Shown: positions 11,635 through 55,800 of the stretch, piece after piece
Layout: each line of letters starts with the position of its first letter
Position numbering within the stretch: the stretch's first letter is position 1
Origin: Malacoraja senta
Taxonomy: Eukaryota
Assembly: GCA_038087875.1 (NCBI GenBank)
Contig: CM075988.1
Location: forward strand, 13,828,001-13,888,000
Length of the DNA: 60,000 bases
Direction: 5' to 3'
Made by a program: the position numbers and the translations under genes
Notes under the pieces: generated by a model
What the model was told of the DNA's origin: nothing
What the model saw: the letters and a program-made list of their open reading frames with translations, nothing else
The model's database searches: none

Positions 11635-14600
11635 TTACCAACCACTACGGCCAGCCTGTAGTGCCTGGAGGGGGACTGCATCCGAACCACCTGGCCCGGG
11701 AACAGGCAAGGAAGCGGCCGGGCCGACGTCAAAGGAGCGCTTCTGGATGGCTTTCTTCTCGATGATGCGCTCTGTGACAACAGCAGGGTTCTGGACTGAG
11801 GGTTTGAGGGACTGTTGCGAGACAGGGAGAGGTGGTCTAGTGGTGCGGGACATGAGGCGTTGGGCAGGTGAACCGAGCGCGGGGTCGCGGGAAATGTTGC
11901 GGAGGTTGAGGAGGGCAAGGTAGAAGTCGGAATGTGAAAGGCGGCAGTGTTCCAGCAGCTCCTTGGCACTGCGGACGGCGCGTTCCGCAAGGCCGTTGCT
12001 CTGCGGATACTCAGGGCTGCTGGTGATGTGACGAAAGTTCCAACGGGCAGCAAAGGCACGGAACTCGGCGCTGGAGAACTGGCTGCCGTTGTCCGATTGG
12101 AGGGTCACCGGGGGTCCATGGGTGCAAAAGTGTCGGCGAAGCTTCCCGATGACGGCGGCAGAGGTGATGGAAGGCAGCTGATCCACCTCAAACCAACTGG
12201 AGTATGAGTCCACCAGGACCAGGAAATGCTTGCCACGCCATTCGAAAAGGTCCGTGGCAATATACATCCACGGTAGCTCGGGGGCCGGCTGCTGCAGGAG
12301 GGGCTGGCGCTGCTGATGAGGCAGGAGACTGTTACAGGCAGCGCAAACGGAGACCCTGTCACGGATGTCCTGAGCCATGCCTGGCCAGTAGAATTGGCTC
12401 TGGGCCTGGGACAAAGTGGCCTCCACCCTGGGGTGGCCATTGTGTGTAGTTTGAAAATAGTGATCCCGCAGAGCGGCCGGCACCACGACCTTGTGACCCT
12501 TCACCACCACGCCGTCATGTAGCACTAGTTCATCACGAACCAGGAAGTAGGGGAGGGCACCAGCCGGCAGGGAAGAGCGTCGGTCAAGCCAACCATGGCG
12601 GATAACGTCCGCAAGTTCTTGCAGGGCAGGATCATCAGCAGTGTGTTTGACCAGGGACTGCATCTGCTGGGATGGAACAATGTTAACATTCAGTACCATC
12701 AGGTCAGAGGATTCGTACGGGTGGCGGGCAACTGAAGGGAGCGGCGCACGGGACAATGTGTCGGCCACAAACATATCTTTGCCCTTGCGGTGCACAATCC
12801 GGAACGTGAAACGCTGGAGCTGCAGCATCATCCGCTGCAACCGGGAAGAGGCGACATGGATAGGCTTATTCAGAATAGTGACCAGTGGCTGGTGGTCAGT
12901 CTCAATGGTGAAGGTGTTGCCCAGAATGTAATCCCTAAACTTGGAGCAGGCGAACACCACGGCAAGTAGCTCCTTCTCGATCTGTGCATAACGTTGCTCG
13001 GCAGGGGTCATGGTGCGAGAAGCGTAGGAGACAGGTAGCTGCAGGCCGTCATAAAGCTGCAGACATGCGGCACCGAGACCGAACTTAGAGGCATCACAAG
13101 TGAGGACAATTGGTCTGTGCAGATCGAAGAACTTAAGAGTCGGTGTGTGTGTGAGCTTGGACTTCAGAGCCACGAACGCCAACTGGTGATGCGGGAGCCA
13201 GATCCATGCGGAGTCCTTTTTGATCAGCTCCCTCAGGGGAGCACTCAGTTCGCTGAGGTCAGGTACGAACTTCCCCTGGTAATTGACCAGGCCCAGGAAG
13301 CGCTGCAGGCCGGGAATGTCAGTAGGAGCGGGCATCTCGGTGACTGCTGATGTTTTCTGGGGGTCAGGCTTTAAACCCCCTGCCGTGAAAACGTGACCAA
13401 CGTAAGTGACTTCCGGGACCCGGAACCGACACTTCTTGGGGTTGAGCTTGAGATTGATTTTACGAGCCCTGTCCAGGACTTTGCGGAGGTGCAGGTCGTG
13501 CTCAGCGACGTCCCTCCCGTACACCAGGATGTCATCCACGATGATAGCGCACGGCAACCCAGCGAACAGCTGTTCCATGGTGCGCTGGAAAACCTCACTA
13601 GCCGAGTTGATCCCAAACGGCATACGGAGGAAACGGAACCTGCCGAAAGGTGTGATGAAGGTGGTCAGGAATGAGGAACGTTCATCTAAAGGGATCTGCC
13701 AGAATGAGCTTTTGGCATCTAAGACAGAGAAGACAGTGGCAGGACCGACCTGTGCAGCGACGTCCTCCACCGTCCGCATGGGGTAGTGCGGGCGCTTGAT
13801 GGCCAGGTTCAGGTCCTTTGGATTAATGCAGATCCGGATCTCACTCTTATCCTTCTTGGCAGCGACAACCATGTTTGAGACCCACCTGGTGGGAGCGCTC
13901 ACCTCCTTGAGGATGCCCATGGTCACCATATCACGCAGAGTAGATTCCACGCGGCCCTTCATAGCGAAGGAGACGCGGTGGGCCGGTCGAACCACCGGGT
14001 CGACACTCGGGTCGACAACGATTGTATAGTCACAGGGCAATTTGCCCAAAATGTCATCAAAACGGTCGGGGTATTCGCCCAGGGGGTCCATGGGGGCCTG
14101 CACCAGGTGAATTCCGCGGTGGAAAGAAACCAAACCAAGGTCCTGGCACGCACAGGCGCCCAGCAGGGTGACATTGTCAGAATCCAGCAGGTGGAAGGTG
14201 AGGGGCCGAGAGGTCTCAAGGACTGTGCAGATAAGCGTGGCCTTCCCCACTGGAACTAGAACTCCTCCCCCATAGACATGAAGGCAGGTGTCATCGGGAG
14301 TAACTATCTCCCCAGATCTTATCCGCTTGAAAAGGCTGATAGACATAACATTTGAAAAGGCACCAGTATCGACCTTGGCAGAGAATGAATGACCATTAAC
14401 AGTAACATGCACAGAGGGATCTGTTATCGTAGCAGGTGCACCCAAAAGCAAAAACACCGTTGAATCACCATGGGAGGAGCTCCTATCAAAGTCCGACTGG
14501 TACTGATAACCAAGCGCACTATCAGGGTCTGCAAGGTTGTTTAAATTCCTCCTTGGAGCAGGGAGCGGCTTATCACGGGACCGACAAGCCGCCGAAAAGT

Positions 14601-15324
14601 GGTTCAGTTTGCCACAGGAATTACAAGTCTTACCCTGCGCGGGGCAAACGTTGAATTGGTGGAAAGAAAAATTACAATTGGGGCAACGGCGTGGGGTGAC
14701 CTTAGCGGGCATTGCGGCGGGGTTTCGTCGTGGCGGACCAGCGTTCCGCCGGCGGCCAGCTGCACCGGTAAAGTTAATGTCCTGGGACACCGGTTGAGAC
14801 ACGGAGCTAACAGCAGAGGCCATACGAGCGGAATACATAGCCTCCCTTAGTGTCAAATCAGGTTTCATAAGGAGCTCGTCACGCAGCTTAGCGTTCAGGA
14901 GACCATTGACCAGGACATCCCTGATCAATTCGTCCGTGGAGATTGTTTCAAGGCGACAGCACCGAGCCATATGACGCAAAGAGGCAATAAAAGCGTCAAT
15001 ATGCTCGCCGGGATTTTGCCGCCTCTGGAAGAATTTAAAGCGTTCAATAATGTTATTGGTAGGGATATCACAGAGGGCAGTGAATTTATCAATGAGACAT
15101 ACCGGGTCCCGACGGTCTTCTCCGGGGGCGAAGTCGAATGAAGCATAGTGATCCATGGCCTCCGGGCCAGCGAGGTTGAGCAGCAGGTGAGCCTGCACAG
15201 CAGGGGTGGCATTAGGATGAGCGATGGCTGTGTAATGTTCAAAGTCGCGCTGGAACACAGTCCAGCGGTGGACAATGTCCGTGTCAAAGACCAATATGTC
15301 GGGTCGACGACAGGAATTGGACAT
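11635..15324 (-). CDS. Gag-Pol polyprotein (zinc knuckles, aspartic protease, RT, RNase H, integrase); C-terminus frameshifted, continuing in the frame ending at 11253
   Basis: CPNCNFSFHQFNVC and CNSCGKLNHFSAAC knuckles, DTGA protease, LDAKSSFWQ and IVDD RT, DASKFGLGA RNase H, HNGH..CAAC plus D/SDNG/E integrase. Likely ATG at 15324 (MSNSCRR). Confidence 0.95.
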   Translation of the reverse strand: MSNSCRRPDILVFDTDIVHRWTVFQRDFEHYTAIAHPNATPAVQAHLLLNLAGPEAMDHYASFDFAPGEDRRDPVCLIDKFTALCDIPTNNIIERFKFFQRRQNPGEHIDAFIASLRHMARCCRLETISTDELIRDVLVNGLLNAKLRDELLMKPDLTLREAMYSARMASAVSSVSQPVSQDINFTGAAGRRRNAGPPRRNPAAMPAKVTPRRCPNCNFSFHQFNVCPAQGKTCNSCGKLNHFSAACRSRDKPLPAPRRNLNNLADPDSALGYQYQSDFDRSSSHGDSTVFLLLGAPATITDPSVHVTVNGHSFSAKVDTGAFSNVMSISLFKRIRSGEIVTPDDTCLHVYGGGVLVPVGKATLICTVLETSRPLTFHLLDSDNVTLLGACACQDLGLVSFHRGIHLVQAPMDPLGEYPDRFDDILGKLPCDYTIVVDPSVDPVVRPAHRVSFAMKGRVESTLRDMVTMGILKEVSAPTRWVSNMVVAAKKDKSEIRICINPKDLNLAIKRPHYPMRTVEDVAAQVGPATVFSVLDAKSSFWQIPLDERSSFLTTFITPFGRFRFLRMPFGINSASEVFQRTMEQLFAGLPCAIIVDDILVYGRDVAEHDLHLRKVLDRARKINLKLNPKKCRFRVPEVTYVGHVFTAGGLKPDPQKTSAVTEMPAPTDIPGLQRFLGLVNYQGKFVPDLSELSAPLRELIKKDSAWIWLPHHQLAFVALKSKLTHTPTLKFFDLHRPIVLTCDASKFGLGAACLQLYDGLQLPVSYASRTMTPAEQRYAQIEKELLAVVFACSKFRDYILGNTFTIETDHQPLVTILNKPIHVASSRLQRMMLQLQRFTFRIVHRKGKDMFVADTLSRAPLPSVARHPYESSDLMVLNVNIVPSQQMQSLVKHTADDPALQELADVIRHGWLDRRSSLPAGALPYFLVRDELVLHDGVVVKGHKVVVPAALRDHYFQTTHNGHPRVEATLSQAQSQFYWPGMAQDIRDRVSVCAACNSLLPHQQRQPLLQQPAPELPWMYIATDLFEWRGKHFLVLVDSYSSWFEVDQLPSITSAAVIGKLRRHFCTHGPPVTLQSDNGSQFSSAEFRAFAARWNFRHITSSPEYPQSNGLAERAVRSAKELLEHCRLSHSDFYLALLNLRNISRDPALGSPAQRLMSRTTRPPLPVSQQSLKPSVQNPAVVTERIIEKKAIQKRSFDVGPAASLPVPGPGGSDAVPLQALQAGRSGW

Positions 15325-15412
15325 AATGAAAACGGGGGGGGGGGGAGACGTGAACAACTGGGAGAAAGCAAAGAATAAAAAGAAAAACCGATAAACAGGA
15401 GACGCGAGTCTA

Positions 15413-15427
15413 CCACTTCTGACACCA
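15413..15427 (-). other. Primer-binding site complementary to the tRNA-Leu 3' end
   Basis: Minus strand TGGTGTCAGAAGTGG directly after the 5' LTR, complementary to ...CCACTTCTGACACCA of vertebrate tRNA-Leu(CAA). Confidence 0.85.
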
Positions 15428-15630
15428 TGTAAAATGACTTGGTTCCTACACAGAGACTTTTACTGATGGTTTATTAAATCACTAACACACACCATGCAAT
15501 AGCTGTCCGTGGTCATCACTGGAGCTAGAGAGAGGGCTGGAGGTGGGAACCTTACAATTATAGGAGAGACAATGGGGAGTGGTTAGTAGTGGTGAGGTCA
15601 CTAAGTTAAAGGAACATGCACTGATCTACA
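15428..15630 (-). repeat. 5' LTR of the Gypsy element
   Basis: TG...CA ends, followed by the ATTTT TSD. Confidence 0.97.
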
Positions 15631-35869: not shown

Positions 35870-38138
35870 TTCATTGGATCATTGTTACACTAACATCACT
35901 GGCGCGTACCGTGCCTTTCCTCGTGCTCCATTGGGCAAATCAGATCATCCCCGCATACAAACAAAAACTGAAATCCATCAAGCCCAAAACAATAACCGTT
36001 AAGTCCTGGTCAGAGGATGTCATCGAAACGTTAAGGGGATGTTTTGAATGCACTGACTGGGACCTCTTCCTCGACGCATCCGGCAACAACATCGACGTGT
36101 ACACTGACGTGGTGACATCATACGTCCGCTACTGTGAAGAACTGTGCGTCCCCTACAAAACTGTCACAATACCCAGTAATGGTAAACCCTGGTTCAACAA
36201 GGATATACAACTTCTTCGCAAAAAGAAAAATGCAGCCTACACCAATGGAAACAGTGATCAATACAAAATAGCAAAATATGAACTCAGGTCTGCAATACGG
36301 AAGGCAAAATTAGCTTATTCAAAGAAATTGGAACAACAATTCAACACTCAGAATTCAAGTCTGGAAAAATCTACAGAAGATGACGGACTACAAAAACCGT
36401 CCTGCTCCCATCTCAGATGAGGATCCGGACTTACCGGAAAAATTGAACACTTTTTATGCACGCTTTGATAATGTCACCCCGCCATCCATGCCTCCCCCCC
36501 CACCTAACTCAGCACCATTCACCATCTCTGAGGAGGTAGTGAGGGCGGCCTTCAAAAATCTTAATAAAATAAAAGCGGCAGGGCCAGACGACCTCAGCCC
36601 CGCTGCTCTTAACCACTGTGCAGCTCAGCTGGCTCCTGTGTTCACCACCATCTTTAACATTTCCCTCAGCCAATGTAGAGTCCCGCAGTGTTTTAAAGCA
36701 TCCATTATCATCCCTGTGCCCAAGTCCTCCAAGGTGAGCTGACTGAACGATTTTAGACCTGTTGCACTAACATCAGTTGCCATGAAGGCCTTTGAGCACA
36801 TAGTCCTCACCCATCTGAAAACATACACTGTCCCAATCATGGACCCTTTTCAATTTGCATACAGCGCCAACCGGTCTGTGGAGGATGCTATCAACTTAGC
36901 TCTTCACTACTCCCTACATCATTTGGAATCACCGAACACTTATGCACGCATCCTGTTTATAGATTTTAGCTCGGCCTTCAATACTATACACCCAATTAAA
37001 CTCTACAATAAACTGTTGGACATGGGCATTCACCTAGCCATGTGCCATTGGATTTTACATTTTCTGACAAACAGACAACAAAGAGTCAAGGTGGGTGAAA
37101 AACTCTCCAGCCCTCTGACTCTCAATACAGGAGCCCCTCAAGGGTGCGTTCTGTCACCTCAGCTCTTCTCACTTTACACCAACAACCTCACATCCCAATG
37201 CAGCTCAGTTAAAATTTTCAAATATGCAGACGACACAACAATAATTGGCCTCATCTCAGACAACAACGAATCACAATACCATCAAACAGTGGACAGCGCA
37301 GTCAAATGGTGCGCAGAAAACAACCTCCAGCTTAACACCTCAAAAACCTTAGAAATCATCATAGATTTCAGACGCAAACGAAACCTCAAACCCCCGGTCC
37401 ATGTCAACTCCCATCCCATAACCTCCACGAACTTATTTAAGTTTCTGGGCACCTATATCTGCAATAATCTAAAATGGCACATCAATGCCGACCAAATCAT
37501 CAAGAAAGGACAACAACGCCTATACTTCCTCAGACAGCTTAAAAAGTTCAGAGTCCACAAACACCTCCTGGTCCGTTTCTATCAATCCATCATTGAAAGC
37601 ATCATCACCTCCTCAATCACAGTTTGGTACGGAAACACTGATAGTCATTCACTACATAGAATACAGCGCATTGTCTCCAAGGCCTCTAGGATTATCAATT
37701 CTCCCCTCCCCTCAATCCATTCCATTTACCTCCAACGTACCTCAAAACGGGCAACAAAGATCATCTCGGACCCCTCCCATCCAGCAAACCACCTTTTCCA
37801 GTCTCTCCCTTCAGGGAGGCGCCTTAGGTCACTTGCTACAAAATCCACCCGTTTTAAAAACAGTTTCTTCCCCTCAGCAATAAGAACACTTAATTCCCTC
37901 CAATAACTTTTTGACTTTGATGTATACAGTGTCTTGCTTATGTTTTTTGTCTGTTCTTTTGCACTATGTTTGTTGGTGAGATTTGTGATTTGTGATGTGG
38001 TATGGATGCACTTTATTATTATGATTTGTGTTGTTATTAGTGTTAATGTGACTAAAGCAGTGTACCATCATGTACCGAACCCAAATACCACCAACCCTGG
38101 TCGTGTGGCAAATAAAGATTCTATCTATCTATCTATCT
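35870..38138 (+). mobile_element. 5'-truncated Rex1/Babar LINE with disrupted ORF
   Basis: EN C-terminus LDHCY...GKSDH; RT QFAY.ANRS.EDA, LFIDFSSAFNT, GAPQGCVLSP, KYADDTT; frameshifts and a stop near 35945, 36355 and 36740; (ctat)n tail. Confidence 0.93.
36782..37906 (+). pseudogene. Reverse transcriptase domain of the Rex1 LINE (374-aa open segment)
   Basis: ORF track; YADD motif. Confidence 0.9.
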
Positions 38139-46470: not shown

Positions 46471-48487
46471 TGGACTTCAGTTTTGTCTTGTAACCATTCT
46501 CCCCTAATGTAATTCCATTGGAAACAAACTCTTCTGTTTGTACAAACTGTTCTAACCTGATGGATTCCGGTTATTGTTGTCCATTCCCAACAGCATTATC
46601 AATTTGTCCTTTCACTTTAATTTTTGAAATTTCCTTCACCAGAACTATCTTCACCCAATCCCATCACTGCACACCACCCCAATTATTCTAACTAATATTT
46701 CATTTATAGCCCTCTTTATTTTATTTCCAGACACAACTGAAGATGTGTCTGATTTTTAGCAAATTCACCTAGCGGTCATACCCAAGAAAGTTAATTGTAG
46801 TAAAATCTTAGGGATTGTAACACCCAGTCCTACTAATCAATCAGGATATTAATTTTACTTCGGAGTCACGTGAGTGACTACGTGAAGAAGACCCGTCAGG
46901 GCGCATGCGCGTCATTACGTCAGTCACATTGGCGCAGACAGGCTGGGAGGAACAGTCCTCCAGCGGTAAGTTTAAAAAATCCTGCAGGTAAGTTTAAACT
47001 TACTTTTCAGGTTGTCCGTTCCAGGAATCTCTTCTCGCAGGTTCCTGCTGGATATCGAATTGAGCATAACCCGGTGGACCGCGGGGAAAATGTTGACCGC
47101 GGGGATGCCGGCTTCGGACCGCGGGTGTGCGGCAGCAGGCGGCCGGTGGGTTTTGCTGGTTGAGTCGCGGACAGAACGGTCCGCGACTCCCGAGGTTTAA
47201 TTCGGGCCGCGGGGTTTTGTCGACCGCGGGTTATGCAAGCTACGGTCACTACGGGTGGCTGTTGGGCTTGTTGTTTCGAGTCGCTGACAGGCAGGTCAGC
47301 GACTCCCGAGATGTGTTGTAAATGTGGACCGTGGGGTTCTCTAGACCGTGGGGATACCGGCTACGGTCCGCAGTAAAGTGAGGAGCCGGTGGCCGTCGGA
47401 CATCTTGTTAGAGTCGCTGACAGTAAGGTCAACGACTCCCGAGGGTGTTCGGGGTGCAGACTGAGCGTGGTCGTCGGGTTACTACCCGACTCACTGAGGC
47501 AGGGAACCCGACTTCGGCAGCCCATATGAGTCGAAACCATGTGGAGCCTGGACAGGAGGGTCCTCTCTGTTATATATGTATATCCTTACACGTATATTAT
47601 CCAGATATGGTGCGCCATATCAGGGCAGGTCATCAGGGGATTGCGGCAGCACCTGTGTTTTCAGGGCTGCTTAGCAATTCCCTCAGTGTAGAGGAGTACA
47701 AGGGGTCAGTGTGTGGCTGACCCCAACCCCAACTCAGGAAGTGGTTTATCACCCTTATGTGTCTATGGCTAGCATTTTCTGCTAATTCTGTGGAGGTTTC
47801 AGGTCTAGGTCCAAGCTGGCCTTCAAGGAGAATTTACAATTCACGCATCCCGGCAGTGCTGCCCTCCAAATTAAGGACGAACGCAATTTTGGGAAGCGTT
47901 CAAAAGGGTAGACATTATAGTTGCCACTAGGTCACGTTGTGACTATCATACCGAGACAGATGATTATCATTTACTCAATTTAGGACCTTGTTGAGCTGTA
48001 TTATCAGTCACCTGTGGGAGTTACACCAGGTGGCGTCATAGTAATTCTGCTCATTAAAGGGACTGTGCACGTTTTCTTCCCCAAGACGCCGGATTATTCA
48101 TATTAAAAGTAAATAAATCCCATATTTAACTGGGATGGGTGTCTTCATTCACATAAATGTCTTTGCCTATGACAAATAACTGTTAAGTTTTGTTCCAGCA
48201 TTTCCCACTATGTCTGATGTACGGGGGCCAGAGGCGCTCCAATTCTTCCCTATAGACGGCGTTGGCATCAGGAAGGAGCACGATTTGGAGTCACTAGCAC
48301 GTGCAGCCTGTTTGGGGAAGGAGGCTACCAACAGAGCATTGATTTGCACGGCTAGTCCTGGCGGCTGCTGTAAGCAGCGACCTGACAACCCCAACTCAGA
48401 GTGAGTGCCAAGCCTGGGGTATCAATGTCAGACAAGATTGCGTCTCGTTGCAATCCAACAATGCTCCATCTTAAGGCATGTCAGGCA

Positions 48488-48880
48488 GCAACACCTAGTA
48501 AAGGGTTGCAAAATTCCTCCCACTCAAGGGTCGGAGTGGTCGAGAGAGTGCTACAGGAGGATGCACATGTTCCTGAAGCAACACCTGTTTGCAGGGTTGC
48601 CATTCCTCCCACTTGGTGCACCACAGTGGTCGAGATAGTGCTAAAATACATGCACACATGCCTGAGGCGACACCTAGTAAAGGGTTGCCAAAATTTCTCC
48701 CACTCAAATGGCGGAGTGGTCGAGAGAGTGCTACAGGAGTATGCACATGGGCCTGAAGCAACACCTGTTTGCAGGGTTGCCATTCCTCCCACTCGGTTCT
48801 CCGTAGTGGTCGAGATGGTGCTAAAATACATGCACACAGGCCTGGGGCAGCTCCTGTTGCAGGTTGCATGTCCTCCCACG
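48488..48880. repeat. ~90-bp tandem array with A/B (180-bp) higher-order period
   Basis: Units start at 48488, 48578, 48667, 48758 and 48847 (partial) with gcaacacct-like sequence. Confidence 0.9.
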
Positions 48881-49286
48881 CGGATGTATAGCAGATGGAG
48901 CCACACACATATATGATAAGATTGTGGGGAATGGTGTCAAACAACATGCTTGGTACAGAGGCATGTACAAGCAAATGGAGGAGATGGATGATGATACATG
49001 CTTCAGCTGCGATTACTCCCACTCTAAAAGAGTGTCTAAGGTTATTATGGATTAACTCCAAACAGGAATCCAAACATGGCTATGTGCCGGGATCCTATGC
49101 TGAATGCATAAGGCACGACGATCGCATGAGGGAAAGCAGTGGGCGTTGCCTCTAAATTTGCTGCTCAGTCGGAGATGGACTAGCCACTACAAGAGAAGTT
49201 GGCCAGCAGCATCAGCGGTCTAATGGAAATGACAACATGGCAGAGTCTGCGAATGAAATTTCATTGGAACTCCACCAAAGGTAAGA

Positions 49287-49930
49287 GTGGCAAGTCTGCT
49301 TGGAAAATTTGTGGCACCATTTCCGCAAGTTCAATATGGACCATTGCACTACGAACAGTTACAGAGGGCAAAGGAACAGGCACTTAGGATAAATTTGAGT
49401 CATTATAATAGACCCATGCAGTTATCAGCAGAGGTTGTTGCTGATTTGCAATGGTGGATTCAGCATGTGTCCAGTAGTTCGAGCAGAGTAGTGCTTGAGC
49501 AGCCTTCCATGATTTTGCAGACGGATGTCAGTGCACTCGGGTGGGGTGCCACGGATACGAGTTCAAGCTGTGGAGGCAGATGGACTGAGCAAGAGGCATC
49601 TCTTCTGCAGACATGGGGAATTAACTATTTAGAGCTTTTATAAGCTTTTTATGCACTTAAGGCTTATTGCTCTAACAAAGGTAACCTGCATGTTCAGTGT
49701 CAGATTGACAACACTATGGCAGTGGCGTATATTGATCACATGGGTGGAATCAAGTCGGTATCTTGTGACAGATTGGCTAATCAAATTTGGGCCTGGTGTA
49801 TTGATAAAGATATTTGGCTTTCAGCTATTTATCTACCAGGTAGATTCAACACTGTGGCAGACGCCAGGTCACGAGAGTTCCATGACAACACAGAGTGGAT
49901 GTTGAACCAGGAGGTGTTCAATAATATAGT
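49287..49930 (+). pseudogene. DIRS RT thumb plus RNase H remnant
   Basis: LLGKFVA.FP.VQYGPLHY, LQWW, LQTDVSALGWGA, INYLEL, DNT.AVAYI.HMGG, N.VADARSR. Confidence 0.9.
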
Positions 49931-50311
49931 AGTTACATATGGAATGCCAGATATCGATTTGTTTGCATCCAGGCTTCACCACCAGCTGCCTAAATATGTT
50001 TCATGGGAACCAGACCCGGGGGCAGTTGCAGTTGATGCTTTCTCGCTACATTTGGGGTGGTATGTTTTTATATATTTTTCCCACCATTCTGCCACATAGG
50101 TCGGTGTCTGCAAAAAATCAAGCATGATGCCGCTTCGGGGGTGCTTGTAATTCCTAATTGGCCGACTCAAGCATGGTTCCCTTTGATGTTACAGTTAGCG
50201 ATCCAACCTTCTTTGGTGGTTCCCAAGCGTAGAAATTTACTGGAGCACCCGGTAACACGGGAAAGTCATCTGTTATGTAACCGTATCGATTTGTTAATTT
50301 GCAGGTTTTAA
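49931..50311 (+). pseudogene. DIRS DNA N6-adenine methyltransferase-like (MT) domain remnant
   Basis: PDIDLFASR...DAFS..W....FPPF..I.R.L.KI.....LVIP.WPTQ.WFP. Confidence 0.85.
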
Positions 50312-51075
50312 GAAGGCCATACCTGGGGCGAGGACTGTCTGGGCGAACTGTGGACATGCTCACTGCAGCCTGGAGAAAGAGTACTCATAAGCAGTATATT
50401 ACTTATGTAAAAAATGGGAGCAATATTGTGTACAAAATAATATTGACTATAGTACTGCAGGTATTGTGGAAGTTTTAGAGTTCCTGTCGACACTCTACTA
50501 TGATGAGGGGCTCAGTTATAGCGCCATTAATACAGTTAGAAGTGCTTTGTCCTCGTATCTTTTAATGGGGTCAGGGAAAGATCCTGTTGGATCTCATCCT
50601 CTCATAGCTCGATTGATGAAAGGAATTTCCAACTCCAGACCTCCTAAACCCAGGTATATGGCGATCTGGGATGTAAGTGTGGTCCTCAAGATGCTTCGTC
50701 AGTGGGTTTCAAAATTGTGTTTTCAGCATCTCCTACTGATCCATGTTTATGTGTAAGGACACATTTATTGCATTATATTGAAGCTACAAGGGCCTTAAGT
50801 AATGTGGAAACAGGATTGTTATCAGTTACAAGAAACCACACAAGAGAGTGTCAGTGCAGACTATCTCAAGGTGGTTAAAGCAAGTGTTGATTCAGGCAGG
50901 TATTAACACTGACGTGTATACATCGTATTCCACTAATGCAGCAGCAAGGTCGGCAGCCAGGGCGATGGATGTTCCCATCGATCATATTCTTACAGGTGGT
51001 CAAATGAATTGGTTTTTCAACAATTTTTACCATCGGCCGATTGCTGATGGGGGCTGTTTGCAAATTCAGTATTAA
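50312..51075 (+). pseudogene. DIRS tyrosine recombinase remnant (internal deletion)
   Basis: AAWRKST.KQY, LEFLSTLY..GLSYSAINTVRSALS, P.PRY..IWDV, TISRWLK..L..AGI.....SYST.AA. Confidence 0.88.
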
Positions 51076-51260
51076 GGTCTGTTTAGTTTCCCCTGGGATA
51101 GAGGGGTTACTGTTTGTTTTGATTATTCAAATCAATTGTTACTGCATGATATTCAAATTTCATGTTTAACGCATTATTGATTGTTTCTCATCCGAAGTCA
51201 ATCAATGCAGTGAGAAGCCGGGATTTGAATCTGCGGCATAAAATCACAGAGCTTTGAACT

Positions 51261-51356
51261 CTTCACGTAGTCACTCACGTGACTCCGAAGTAAAATAGTA
51301 AGATTAAACGAGAACTTACCAGTTTGAAGTTTGATCTTTATTTTATGAGGAGTTAC
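51261..51356. repeat. DIRS internal complementary region (ICR)
   Basis: 51261-51296 is the reverse complement of 46852-46887; 51294-51356 is the reverse complement of 51536-51598. Confidence 0.93.
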
Positions 51357-52114
51357 ATTGATGATTACGTGCCCACCACGCCCAACCCTCTCTCTCATAA
51401 AAGGTCATATGGTAGTTCTCATGTTGCTCATCTTACTATGTTACTTCAAATATTCTGTTATCTGTGATTTCATACCGCTGCTTTGAAGATTGACGCGCAT
51501 GCGCCCTGACGGGTCTACTTCACGTAATCACCAACGTAACTCCTCATAAAATAAAGATCAAACTTCAAACTGGTAAGTTCTCGTTTAATCTTACTATTCA
51601 TGTCTGATTCAAGTTAAACCTATTGTGAAAGTGCAGCTCACACTTTCCCCATTACTGGTGCTGTATCTGTTGGTGAAACCATTTCTCCTACACCAGTTTT
51701 TGAGCCATACATTTAATTCTCTAATTCTTATAGATTAATTCTCAATTTACATGTGCAGTAATCCAGAAATTAGTACATTGGCTTTTACCTTTTAATTTGG
51801 TCACGAGCTGATTGCATTCCTTCAGTAAAACCTTCTTCTAAGTCCAATTATGTCCATAATTTCCACATGGACCACAACAAACACATTTTCACGTTCTATT
51901 CCAGCAATGAGAAGATGTCCTTTATTCCAGTTTAGGCCAGGTAACACAGACTTAAATATGTGGTCAGAGAATTATATCTATGTCCCTAATTAAACTGTCT
52001 CTATTACTCATTTCCTTTTACTCCTGACTTGAATCGCCATACTGCCGTAGTCAGCTTGATCACATACAGTCTACAGAGGCCTACAGTCTGTGCTCTCATT
52101 CGCACAGGCTCTAA

Positions 52115-54112: not shown

Positions 54113-55800
54113 AATTTAGTTTAGTGTGGAGATACAGCATTGTAATAGGCCCTTCAATCCACTGAGTTTACACCAACCATCAATCACCCGTTCGCAATAG
54201 TTCTATGTTATCCCAATTTCTCATCCATTCTCTTGGTCCCATAGCAGAAGCGTCCACGTTGCGGGGCTGGAAGTCAGTCCGTGTGGGCAAGAACACTTCA
54301 GGCTCGATCACGCTGAGCACCGGCTCCCCTCAAGGCTGTGTGCTCAGCCCGCTGTTGTTCACATTGCTCACACATGATTGTGCTGCCAGATTCAGGGACA
54401 ATAAGATCATAAAATTCGCGGATGACACAACAGTGGTGGGACTCATCAGCGGAGATGATGAATCAATGTACAGGGAGGAAGTAAAACAACTAGTGGACTG
54501 GTGCGGCAAAAATAATCTAGAATTAAATGTCGACAAAACAAAGGAGATGGTCGTCGACTTCAGGAGGGCGCAGCCAAAGCATGCACCCCTTAACATCAGT
54601 GGCGCCACAGTGGAGAGAGTGGAGAGCATAAAGTTCCTCAGGGTGCAAATTACAGACAGCCTCACCTGGTCCAGAAACACCACTGGGACCGTCAAAAGGG
54701 CCCATCAGCGACTGCACTTCCTGAGGAAACAAAAACAGGCCTCACTCCCCACCAACATCCTCAGGACTTTCTACAGGGGTATGGTGGAGTCTGTACTCAC
54801 GTACTGTTTAAATACGTGGTACTCCACCTGCAACTGCTCGGACAGGAAGGCTCTGCAGAGGGTAGTGAGGGGAGCAGAGAAGATCATTGGCGTCTCCCTA
54901 CCCTCGGTACAAGATCTGTTCCTGAGCCACTGTCGGAAAAAAGCTCAGAGAATTGCTAAGGACAAACTGCACCCCCTCCACATACACCTGGATCTCCTGC
55001 CATCAGGCAAGAGATATCGCAGCATCAAAGCCCGGACTACAAGACTGCTAAACAGCTTCCTGCCATATGCTGTGAGGCTGCTAAACAGCCACTCTGTACT
55101 CACAGTCACCTGATTCTGCGGCTTGGCACAGACACTATAATAACTGGCACTGGCCACTTCAATAACTGGCACTGGCCACTCAAATCAGCCACCCCGGACA
55201 TGTTTATGATTGGTCTTACTGTATTTTAACGTTGTTTTTATCTATTTTAACTTTATACTGTTCCATCAGGGACTGGATTGTTTTTAGTGTTATTATGTGT
55301 GAAATGTTTTAAACTTCATGTGCGATGCTCCGGTATTCCCTGGGAAACGGCTTCTCGTTTTGCACTGCACAACTGTTGCTTGCAAGATGACAATAAAGGA
55401 ATTGAATTGAATTGAATTAAAGTATCCTGAGCTAATTCTGCTATCACCATCATCTATTACGACAAGTGATGGCTTCCGTTGATTGTCGCCAGAAGCTAAC
55501 GTCCTTTTCAGGACGGACGATGACAGCGAGGTCAACATTTGTAACAAGATGGACACGAAAAGGAGAAGAAGAAGAAGATCCACTCTCTACACACTAGGGG
55601 TAATTTACAGAGGTCAAATTAACCTACAAACCCGCACATCTTTGGGATGTGGGAGGAAACCGGAGCACCAGATGAAATCCACACAGCCACAGAGAGAATG
55701 TACAGACAAACAAACAGACAGTACCCAAGGTCAGGGTCGACCCTGGTTCTCTGGCGCTGTGAGGCAGCAGCTCTATCAGTTGCATCACTGTCACCCTAGC
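54113..55800 (-). mobile_element. V-SINE split by nested insertions
   Basis: Tail at 54113-54232; body and head at 55578-55800. Confidence 0.75.
54275..55418 (+). mobile_element. Rex1/Babar LINE 3' fragment with open RT C-terminal half
   Basis: TGSPQGCVLSPLLF, KFADDTT and LLPSGKRYRS in ORF 54205-55113; (attga)n tail. Confidence 0.92.

Follow-up and report, generated by a model that had tools for sequence, protein, structure and literature searches.

What is the tandem array of three-hairpin, roughly 90-nt units that lies at positions 48488-48880 of the 60,000-nucleotide stretch of Malacoraja senta DNA analysed here (called the window below; GCA_038087875.1, contig CM075988.1, 13,828,001 to 13,888,000, forward strand), and does its regularity reflect selection on an RNA? 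A sequence-only reading had seen in it an unexplained structured-RNA array with compensatory changes, and had suggested a protein-binding scaffold, a processed small-RNA array or a nuclease-blocking element.

Units of the array and their folding

The array consists of the following parts:

48488..48577 (+): unit A1, 90 nt; bulged A in H1, 3' bulge in H2, then H3
48578..48666 (+): unit B1, 89 nt
48667..48757 (+): unit A2, 91 nt
48758..48846 (+): unit B2, 89 nt
48847..48880 (+): incomplete fifth unit with H1 and the H2 5' arm; nearer the older unit type

The count of about 4.4 alternating A and B units was borne out, as four full units (90, 89, 91 and 89 nt) and an incomplete one, both by TRF (periods of 89, 90 and 180 at 48487-48879) and by the identities among units (A1/A2 90%, B1/B2 91%, A/B 66-68%). 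Folding of the whole array gave z-scores of -4.8 on the + strand and -3.4 on the - strand, both inflated by the repetition; for single full units the values were -1.5 to -2.7 on + (300 dinucleotide shuffles) and -0.2 to -1.9 on -, with B2 equal for both strands. The three-hairpin fold proposed for every unit was recovered in part: H1 and H2 occur in the MFE structures of all four full units, but H3 takes the described form only in B1 and B2, lies in a shifted register in A2 and is replaced by another pairing in A1.

Conserved stems with varying loops were likewise found again. When array unit types are compared, variation affects 12 of 42 paired columns vs 41 of 52 unpaired ones (p=1e-6; L156 left out for H3), in a comparison that is partly circular, the structure having been drawn from the same units. 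The compensatory H2 change between B1 and B2, on the other hand, amounts to a C>T change in one arm and a G>A change in the other, both CpG-type transitions, which need no selection because methylation decay yields changes of this type, and none of the 21 named pairs has changed on both sides among 15 array units. The changes in H1 among array units are mostly A-U/G-U exchanges on the + strand, which, as far as sequence can tell, point to a + strand RNA or ssDNA. Of the earlier guess at a selected RNA or ssDNA structure, the stem conservation and the + strand G-U changes therefore speak in favour, whereas covariation is absent within the array. Agreement with any recognised RNA family was denied from the outset, and the Rfam search came back empty at two thresholds (no match at gathering; none at E<=1 in the array, the best, at E 1.6, lying outside it), while ARAGORN reported no tRNA. 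Resemblances to a permuted tRNA, hammerhead, HDV and C/D-box RNAs, judged by motif, were dropped, since the gag origin described below accounts for the sequence.

Some family copies carry just 2-3 units, and a subgroup has a B2 without about 17 nt of H2; with 2-4.4 units, situated inside the element in the copies examined, the array is not a satellite. The copy comparisons leave out L001 and L003, which are near-identical to the window, and the duplicate L026; the comparison of the H2 deletion in B2 omitted arrays under 395 nt or lacking the anchor, and that of older units omitted 5 of 30 loci (duplicate or unrelated).

The element that hosts the array

The array lies within an element whose parts are these:

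46852..51598 (+): whole non-autonomous DIRS1-like retrotransposon, 4.75 kb (inverted repeats I1, I3, I5)
46852..47001 (+): left inverted terminal repeat and 5' end, common to intact-type elements (nhmmer E 1e-35; I3, I5)
47138..47443 (+): three-copy hairpin repeat, 57-nt core, spacing 116 and 133 (family D2)
47644..47733 (+): single H1-H2-H3 gag segment (nhmmer E 2.7e-5 / 5.8e-6)
49142..49225 (+): decayed gag, downstream of the hairpin segment in intact elements (hmmsearch iE 0.014; tblastn E 0.004-0.3)
49287..50308 (+): frameshifted region with the RT end, RNase H and methyltransferase (76-90% to intact-type ORFs in tblastn)
50281..51075 (+): tyrosine recombinase (YR) remnant, broken; internal deletion near 50705-50711
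51260..51371 (+): internal complementary region (ICR; I5 and I1 pairings)
51491..51598 (+): right terminal repeat and extension (I1, I3)

According to the excerpted description in PMC3266345, DIRS1-like elements are defined by inverted terminal repeats (ITRs), an ICR, a right extension and coding for RT-RH-MT and YR. In the window, the terminal repeats of I3 (46862-46914 and 51491-51543) are 91% identical, and the ICR is complementary to both ends. Its first arm, 51260-51296, pairs with the left end at 100% along 37 nt (I5), its second, 51294-51371, with the right end at 97% along 78 nt (I1), and the two arms adjoin at 51294-51296. The pol remnants have 76-90% protein identity to sister elements (tblastn), and the remnant DNA is 92-98% identical to sisters that bear RVT_1, Phage_integrase (E 4e-9 in the intact-type recombinase ORF) and a sub-threshold Dam match; the window's own pol and recombinase fragments gave no Pfam match. 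Judged from its sequence, the host is a DIRS1-like (tyrosine-recombinase) retrotransposon, and a defective one: coverage of the gag core and the RT core is 0 and the frames are broken, which leaves it without autonomy. It resembles the elements of the excerpted description in PMC3266345 in its ITRs, ICR, right extension, NTT start and RT-RH-MT plus YR order, and its 4.75 kb fall inside the range of 4.0-6.3 kb given there. Unlike a typical member, the window copy lacks the gag and RT cores and is chimeric; neither a conserved gag hairpin nor a tandem array is mentioned in that excerpt. Elements of the host's kind are known, non-autonomous members of the DIRS order among them.

The chimera, proven on sequence grounds, joins a 5' part from an older defective lineage to a 3' part from a young intact-type family. 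Tiles of 47000-49249 are closest to older defective loci (74-92%), and tiles from 49400 onwards to intact-type elements (85-99%, mostly 95-98%). Contigs of four other organisms cover the region including the array, at high depth in three and low depth in one; in two of the four, loose ends at 49285 run on into older-lineage sequence, which fits a recent chimera junction at that place.

At least 40 genomic copies are 97-100% identical over the array, and a pattern search with the H2 core returned 987 exact matches vs 10 for the control, from which, at 2-3 per locus, we infer about 400 copies. The median pairwise identity of 60 copies over the array is 96.6%, and 20 full-length stretches have one common deletion structure. 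This is the picture of many young, dispersed copies with common defects that marks a non-autonomous retroelement mobilised in trans. Defective and intact elements are similar in length (about 4.3-4.9 kb). Two stretches, C2255:113071 and C4065:109692 (G000), are 99.4-99.8% identical to the window element over 3.4 kb and represent either very recent copies or assembly haplotype duplicates. Extra stretches of 3.4 kb and 1.4 kb in two copies, considered as the missing gag, proved to be LINE-like insertions.

Sister elements found via RNase H have one gag-pol ORF, up to 1,055 codons long and bearing RVT_1, followed by the recombinase ORF, and TRF detected no comparable array inside the intact-type ones. 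Loci L061-L100 include intact-type DIRS elements of about 4.8 kb with gag and pol fused in one ORF and YR next.

The 5' region of the window element contains a second amplified structured unit, the hairpin repeat at 47138-47443, whose 90-nt stretches have z-scores of -4.1 to -1.7; one older long-gag element has a single copy resembling this hairpin. Elsewhere in the window we observed a Gypsy-like LTR retrotransposon ORF of 1,274 codons on the - strand (11635-15459), with protease, RT, RNase H and integrase matches, and, on the + strand, LINE RT fragments with an ALKBH8_N-like tail (36743-37906 and 54166-55113).

Origin of the unit in gag

The contigs of other organisms differ from the window at two positions in H2, near-fixed in B2 and common in B1, and a search with those two variants gave 555 matches vs 16 for the control and led to older subfamilies. 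Upstream of the array, in its first units (where the period is 30 codons) and downstream of it, these read as DIRS gag, the gag before and the gag after the array standing in different frames. A profile built from 30 intact-type 5' gag regions matched the downstream flanks of the older subfamilies at E 1e-10 to 1e-2 and the upstream flanks at E 1e-4 to 1e-2. Single units matched it weakly (E 0.005 to about 0.9; unit A1, E 0.048-0.25), at one gag position, profile 424-480, and a reversed-profile control produced none among the matches listed. Upstream of the array, 47644-47733 is the sole piece of the window that the profile recognises.

In intact-type elements this gag segment codes for the motif AAP-x-x-GL, and three successive hairpins of the array's form can arise in it: the first stem has a bulged purine, the second a 3' bulge, and the third is simple. 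H1-H3 are present in many, not all, of the single MFE structures. These comparisons show the array unit to be a duplicated 5' gag segment, carried in single copy by intact-type elements, and the idea of a stand-alone array in need of explanation gives way to that of a gag piece multiplied inside a defective retrotransposon. The origin had been missed by tblastn with intact-type proteins and was revealed by the profiles and the older subfamilies.

Just upstream of the array, a 64-codon ATG frame (48210-48404) follows a splice-acceptor-like site and resembles a decayed gag N-terminus; a stop-free stretch of at least 70 codons ends at this frame in 51 family copies examined, and a protein search with it yielded 18 candidates, longer proteins only and none at E<=0.01. 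L173, L175 and L176 represent a defective lineage with the array module and a different 5' part that has its own tandem repeat of about 90 nt (e.g. L173 2577-2908).

Evidence for and against nucleotide-level constraint on the gag hairpins

The exact pattern of H1 occurs 6,166 times in the genome vs 0 in the control. Forty of these matches were sampled, picked for loop diversity, and 36 lay in DIRS gag context (iE<0.05), with 31 loop types and 25 encoded dipeptides among them. The third-position bases that form the inner U-A pair of H1 are nearly fixed, another base being found in 185 cases at the Pro codon and in 97 at its partner, exceptions that may be taken as about what post-insertion decay would produce. 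Among copies chosen via RNase H, 8 of 30 have two silent changes that jointly make a G-C pair, all in one family.

Synonymous randomisation was applied to 18 deduplicated gag sequences, 13 chosen via H1 and 5 via RNase H (26 of the 40 loci in the sample were omitted because their frames were shifted or stopped, and 5 near-duplicates were omitted too). The mean z was -2.2, -2.0, -1.5 and -1.6 in four intervals that run from 90 nt upstream of H1 through H2 (-90 to +63 nt), -0.5 in H3 and -0.1 to -0.3 downstream, and the structured domain is, on these predicted folds, one that reaches upstream of H1. Four-fold site variability was 0.17 in H1-H3 vs 0.21 in the rest of gag, a difference that is not significant; over intact-type elements as a whole, variation at four-fold sites is low in pol and in the opening 150 codons of gag and high in the gag core.

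Covariation in gag was weak, partly because the register of H2 shifts between families: alignment A1 had none above shuffles, and alignment A2, a hand-picked set of 26, exceeded all 500 shuffles but stayed below the slid control. RNAalifold retained H1 alone on the gag alignment, and one H3 pair is broken in 12 of 30 intact-type copies. We accordingly grade the hairpins, as read from sequence variation, as firm for H1, probable for H2 and weak for H3. In one array family, H1 contains an A-A mismatch. We also observed a family in which two H1 variants lie 143-145 nt apart and the U-A pair is replaced by a mismatch (G000 loci C1:230267556, C1:303626584, C2:60604900 and others).

Amplification in defective elements

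More than one H1 was present in 0 of 32 RNase H-selected loci with gag and RT cores (in 5 of which the pattern missed H1 entirely) and in 3 of the 8 remaining loci, two of these three belonging to the window element's family. Six further elements, picked for clustered H1 matches, have H1 arrays with periods of 76, 117-119 and 145-146 nt, and all are defective; additional periods are 84 nt and, in another element, 117/126. Unit length and donor sequence argue for at least four origins of H1 arrays. Since most of the periods break the gag frame, the link between array and defectiveness is expected whether or not amplification is selected, and so is the single copy in intact elements. In L085, an 84-nt in-frame duplication including H1 (2106-2271, oriented) stands in an element from which most of the gag core is gone, and looks like a nascent array.

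Within the young family, 60 copies have common variants at 4 of 163 stem sites vs 4 of 178 other sites, so stems are not depleted of variants, two of which break pairs, and at least 6 of the 60 lack part of the H2 of B2. In defective elements, 5' segments that do not contain H1 are duplicated as well.

Discussion

What, then, maintains the array? The explanation that we place first, at roughly even chances, is a reiterated cis-acting RNA signal, e.g. a Gag or RT binding site or a packaging site, that has been multiplied by parasitic elements. It starts from a unit of gag origin, a defective host, a single copy in intact elements, the fixation of H1 at the nucleotide level and repeated amplification in defective lineages. 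In intact elements, gag contains a single set of these hairpins. The segment was duplicated in a defective lineage, RT slippage or template switching being the probable route, and the stems were retained after coding was lost. In the transcript, the predicted hairpins would form and bind a protein of the element, with packaging, by analogy with Ty1, as the likeliest step, and the additional copies could capture more helper Gag or RT, to the advantage of the defective RNA. Among the guesses of the sequence-only reading, the protein-binding scaffold comes closest to this.

The hairpins may instead have been constrained only in intact gag, the array being a scar of RT slippage left once coding had relaxed, perhaps useful as length filler; we think this possible, though we would not bet on it, and the same tentative standing belongs to its account of stem conservation, in which recombination with co-packaged RNAs refreshes the stems. 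A neutral by-product is what one would expect from a young family without stem depletion or double changes, from the spread of copies that have fewer units or carry an H2 deletion, from the duplication of other 5' segments, from the similar lengths of defective and intact elements, and from a chimeric window element in which the H1 loop of the A units is the same as that of another gag family. Against it stand the fixed stems and free loops across unit types down to 66% identity, a fixation that includes H2 and H3 sequences far from any intact gag, and the recurrence of H1 arrays from at least four origins. A signal at the DNA level appears rather improbable to us; H1 would here serve as a double-stranded inverted-repeat site, a promoter or enhancer, or a hairpin of single-stranded cDNA, copies of which raise transcription or cDNA processing. 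The conserved primary sequence of H1, with almost no swaps, is indeed like that of a protein-DNA site, and splice-like sites and CpG-rich sequence were noticed by eye in the 5' region. However, lower-stem changes preserve G-U pairing on the + strand (two pairs show A-U/G-U exchange, one in 3 and the other in 7 of the 15 units), and the one-sided bulge offsets the inner pair, both of which suit a single + strand.

That the element captured a stand-alone functional RNA array, such as a small-RNA precursor, a ribozyme or a snoRNA-like RNA, is very unlikely: the hairpins are regular, and older units and other organisms have a box C-like stretch with CUGA downstream, but the unit derives from gag, the window's own units lack the box C-like bases, Rfam and tRNA matches are absent, inspection revealed no hammerhead core, and we found nothing in support of a processed small-RNA array or a nuclease block. 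Least credible of all is a protein-coding repeat of 30 residues, be it a Gag variant or a new peptide. The unit lengths were once said to break any frame, and this was mistaken, for a stop-free + frame of 176 codons (48386-48916) spans the array, as do two - frames (151 and 194 codons); the frame ends at 48868 with at least 70 codons in 22 family copies examined, and the commonest older unit, derived from gag, is exactly 90 nt and in the gag frame. The conclusion that the array is no protein repeat nevertheless stands, because indels place equivalent stems in different frames between A and B and codon-position bias is absent (variation 0.16/0.13/0.17 among array unit types). Furthermore, gag before and after the array is out of frame in older copies, other arrays have periods of 76, 118, 119, 145 and 146, and the array frame gave no usable Atlas match and a Pfam match to YopE_N below the cut-off, with no passing stretch.

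Several known systems offer points of comparison for a reiterated cis-acting signal. HBV epsilon and MS2-type RNAs have bulged hairpins, and the likeness to H1, by analogy only, lies in the form of the bulged stem-loop. Reiterated cis signals in defective genomes are familiar from defective interfering particles and suppressive petite mtDNA, where a parasite multiplies the element recognised by the helper's proteins; this too is analogy without homology. TOC1 and kangaroo of Volvox contain internal tandem arrays (about 76 and 89 bp) and are, like the window element, YR retroelements; unlike it, they have PAT-type split direct repeats and algal hosts. In Ty1, nucleotides 237-380 are gag coding sequence. 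The excerpted text of PMC9940879 lists TOC1 as a non-autonomous DIRS-order element. In Ty1, according to the excerpt of PMC4974528, the packaging signals lie within RNA nt 237-380; deletion of these nucleotides leaves packaging at 15%, and elements with deletions can be mobilised in trans. Ty1 and mini-Ty1 would resemble the window element in having structured 5' cis signals that deleted elements must keep for trans mobilisation; reiteration of the signal is not described in that excerpt. Ty1 differs, moreover, as an LTR/integrase element primed by tRNA, and the likeness proposed here is one of function.

A more specific version of the cis-acting reading, which we advance tentatively, is that H1 and its neighbours are the signal by which Gag or RT recognises DIRS RNA, multiplied repeatedly by defective lineages to outcompete their helpers. 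The step concerned might be packaging or an initiation of reverse transcription without a known primer, and the same caution covers both. The replication model of DIRS elements is, according to PMC5633606, proposed and not fully proven, and a search of the open-licence literature brought up no description of a DIRS gag packaging signal, RNA structure or hairpin, or of its amplification.

The array is less strange than the sequence-only reading supposed, yet it gives a testable candidate for RNA recognition in DIRS elements. If it is a neutral scar, it amounts to ordinary transposon debris, and the single-copy gag hairpin stays a conserved cis candidate. A 22-nt hairpin fixed in thousands of copies and amplified by several defective lineages is a concrete target for binding and probing, and the candidate would be the first handle on DIRS RNA recognition. 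Should the recognition signal prove true, the array would represent a strategy of the defective-interfering type that has become fixed in the germ line of a vertebrate.
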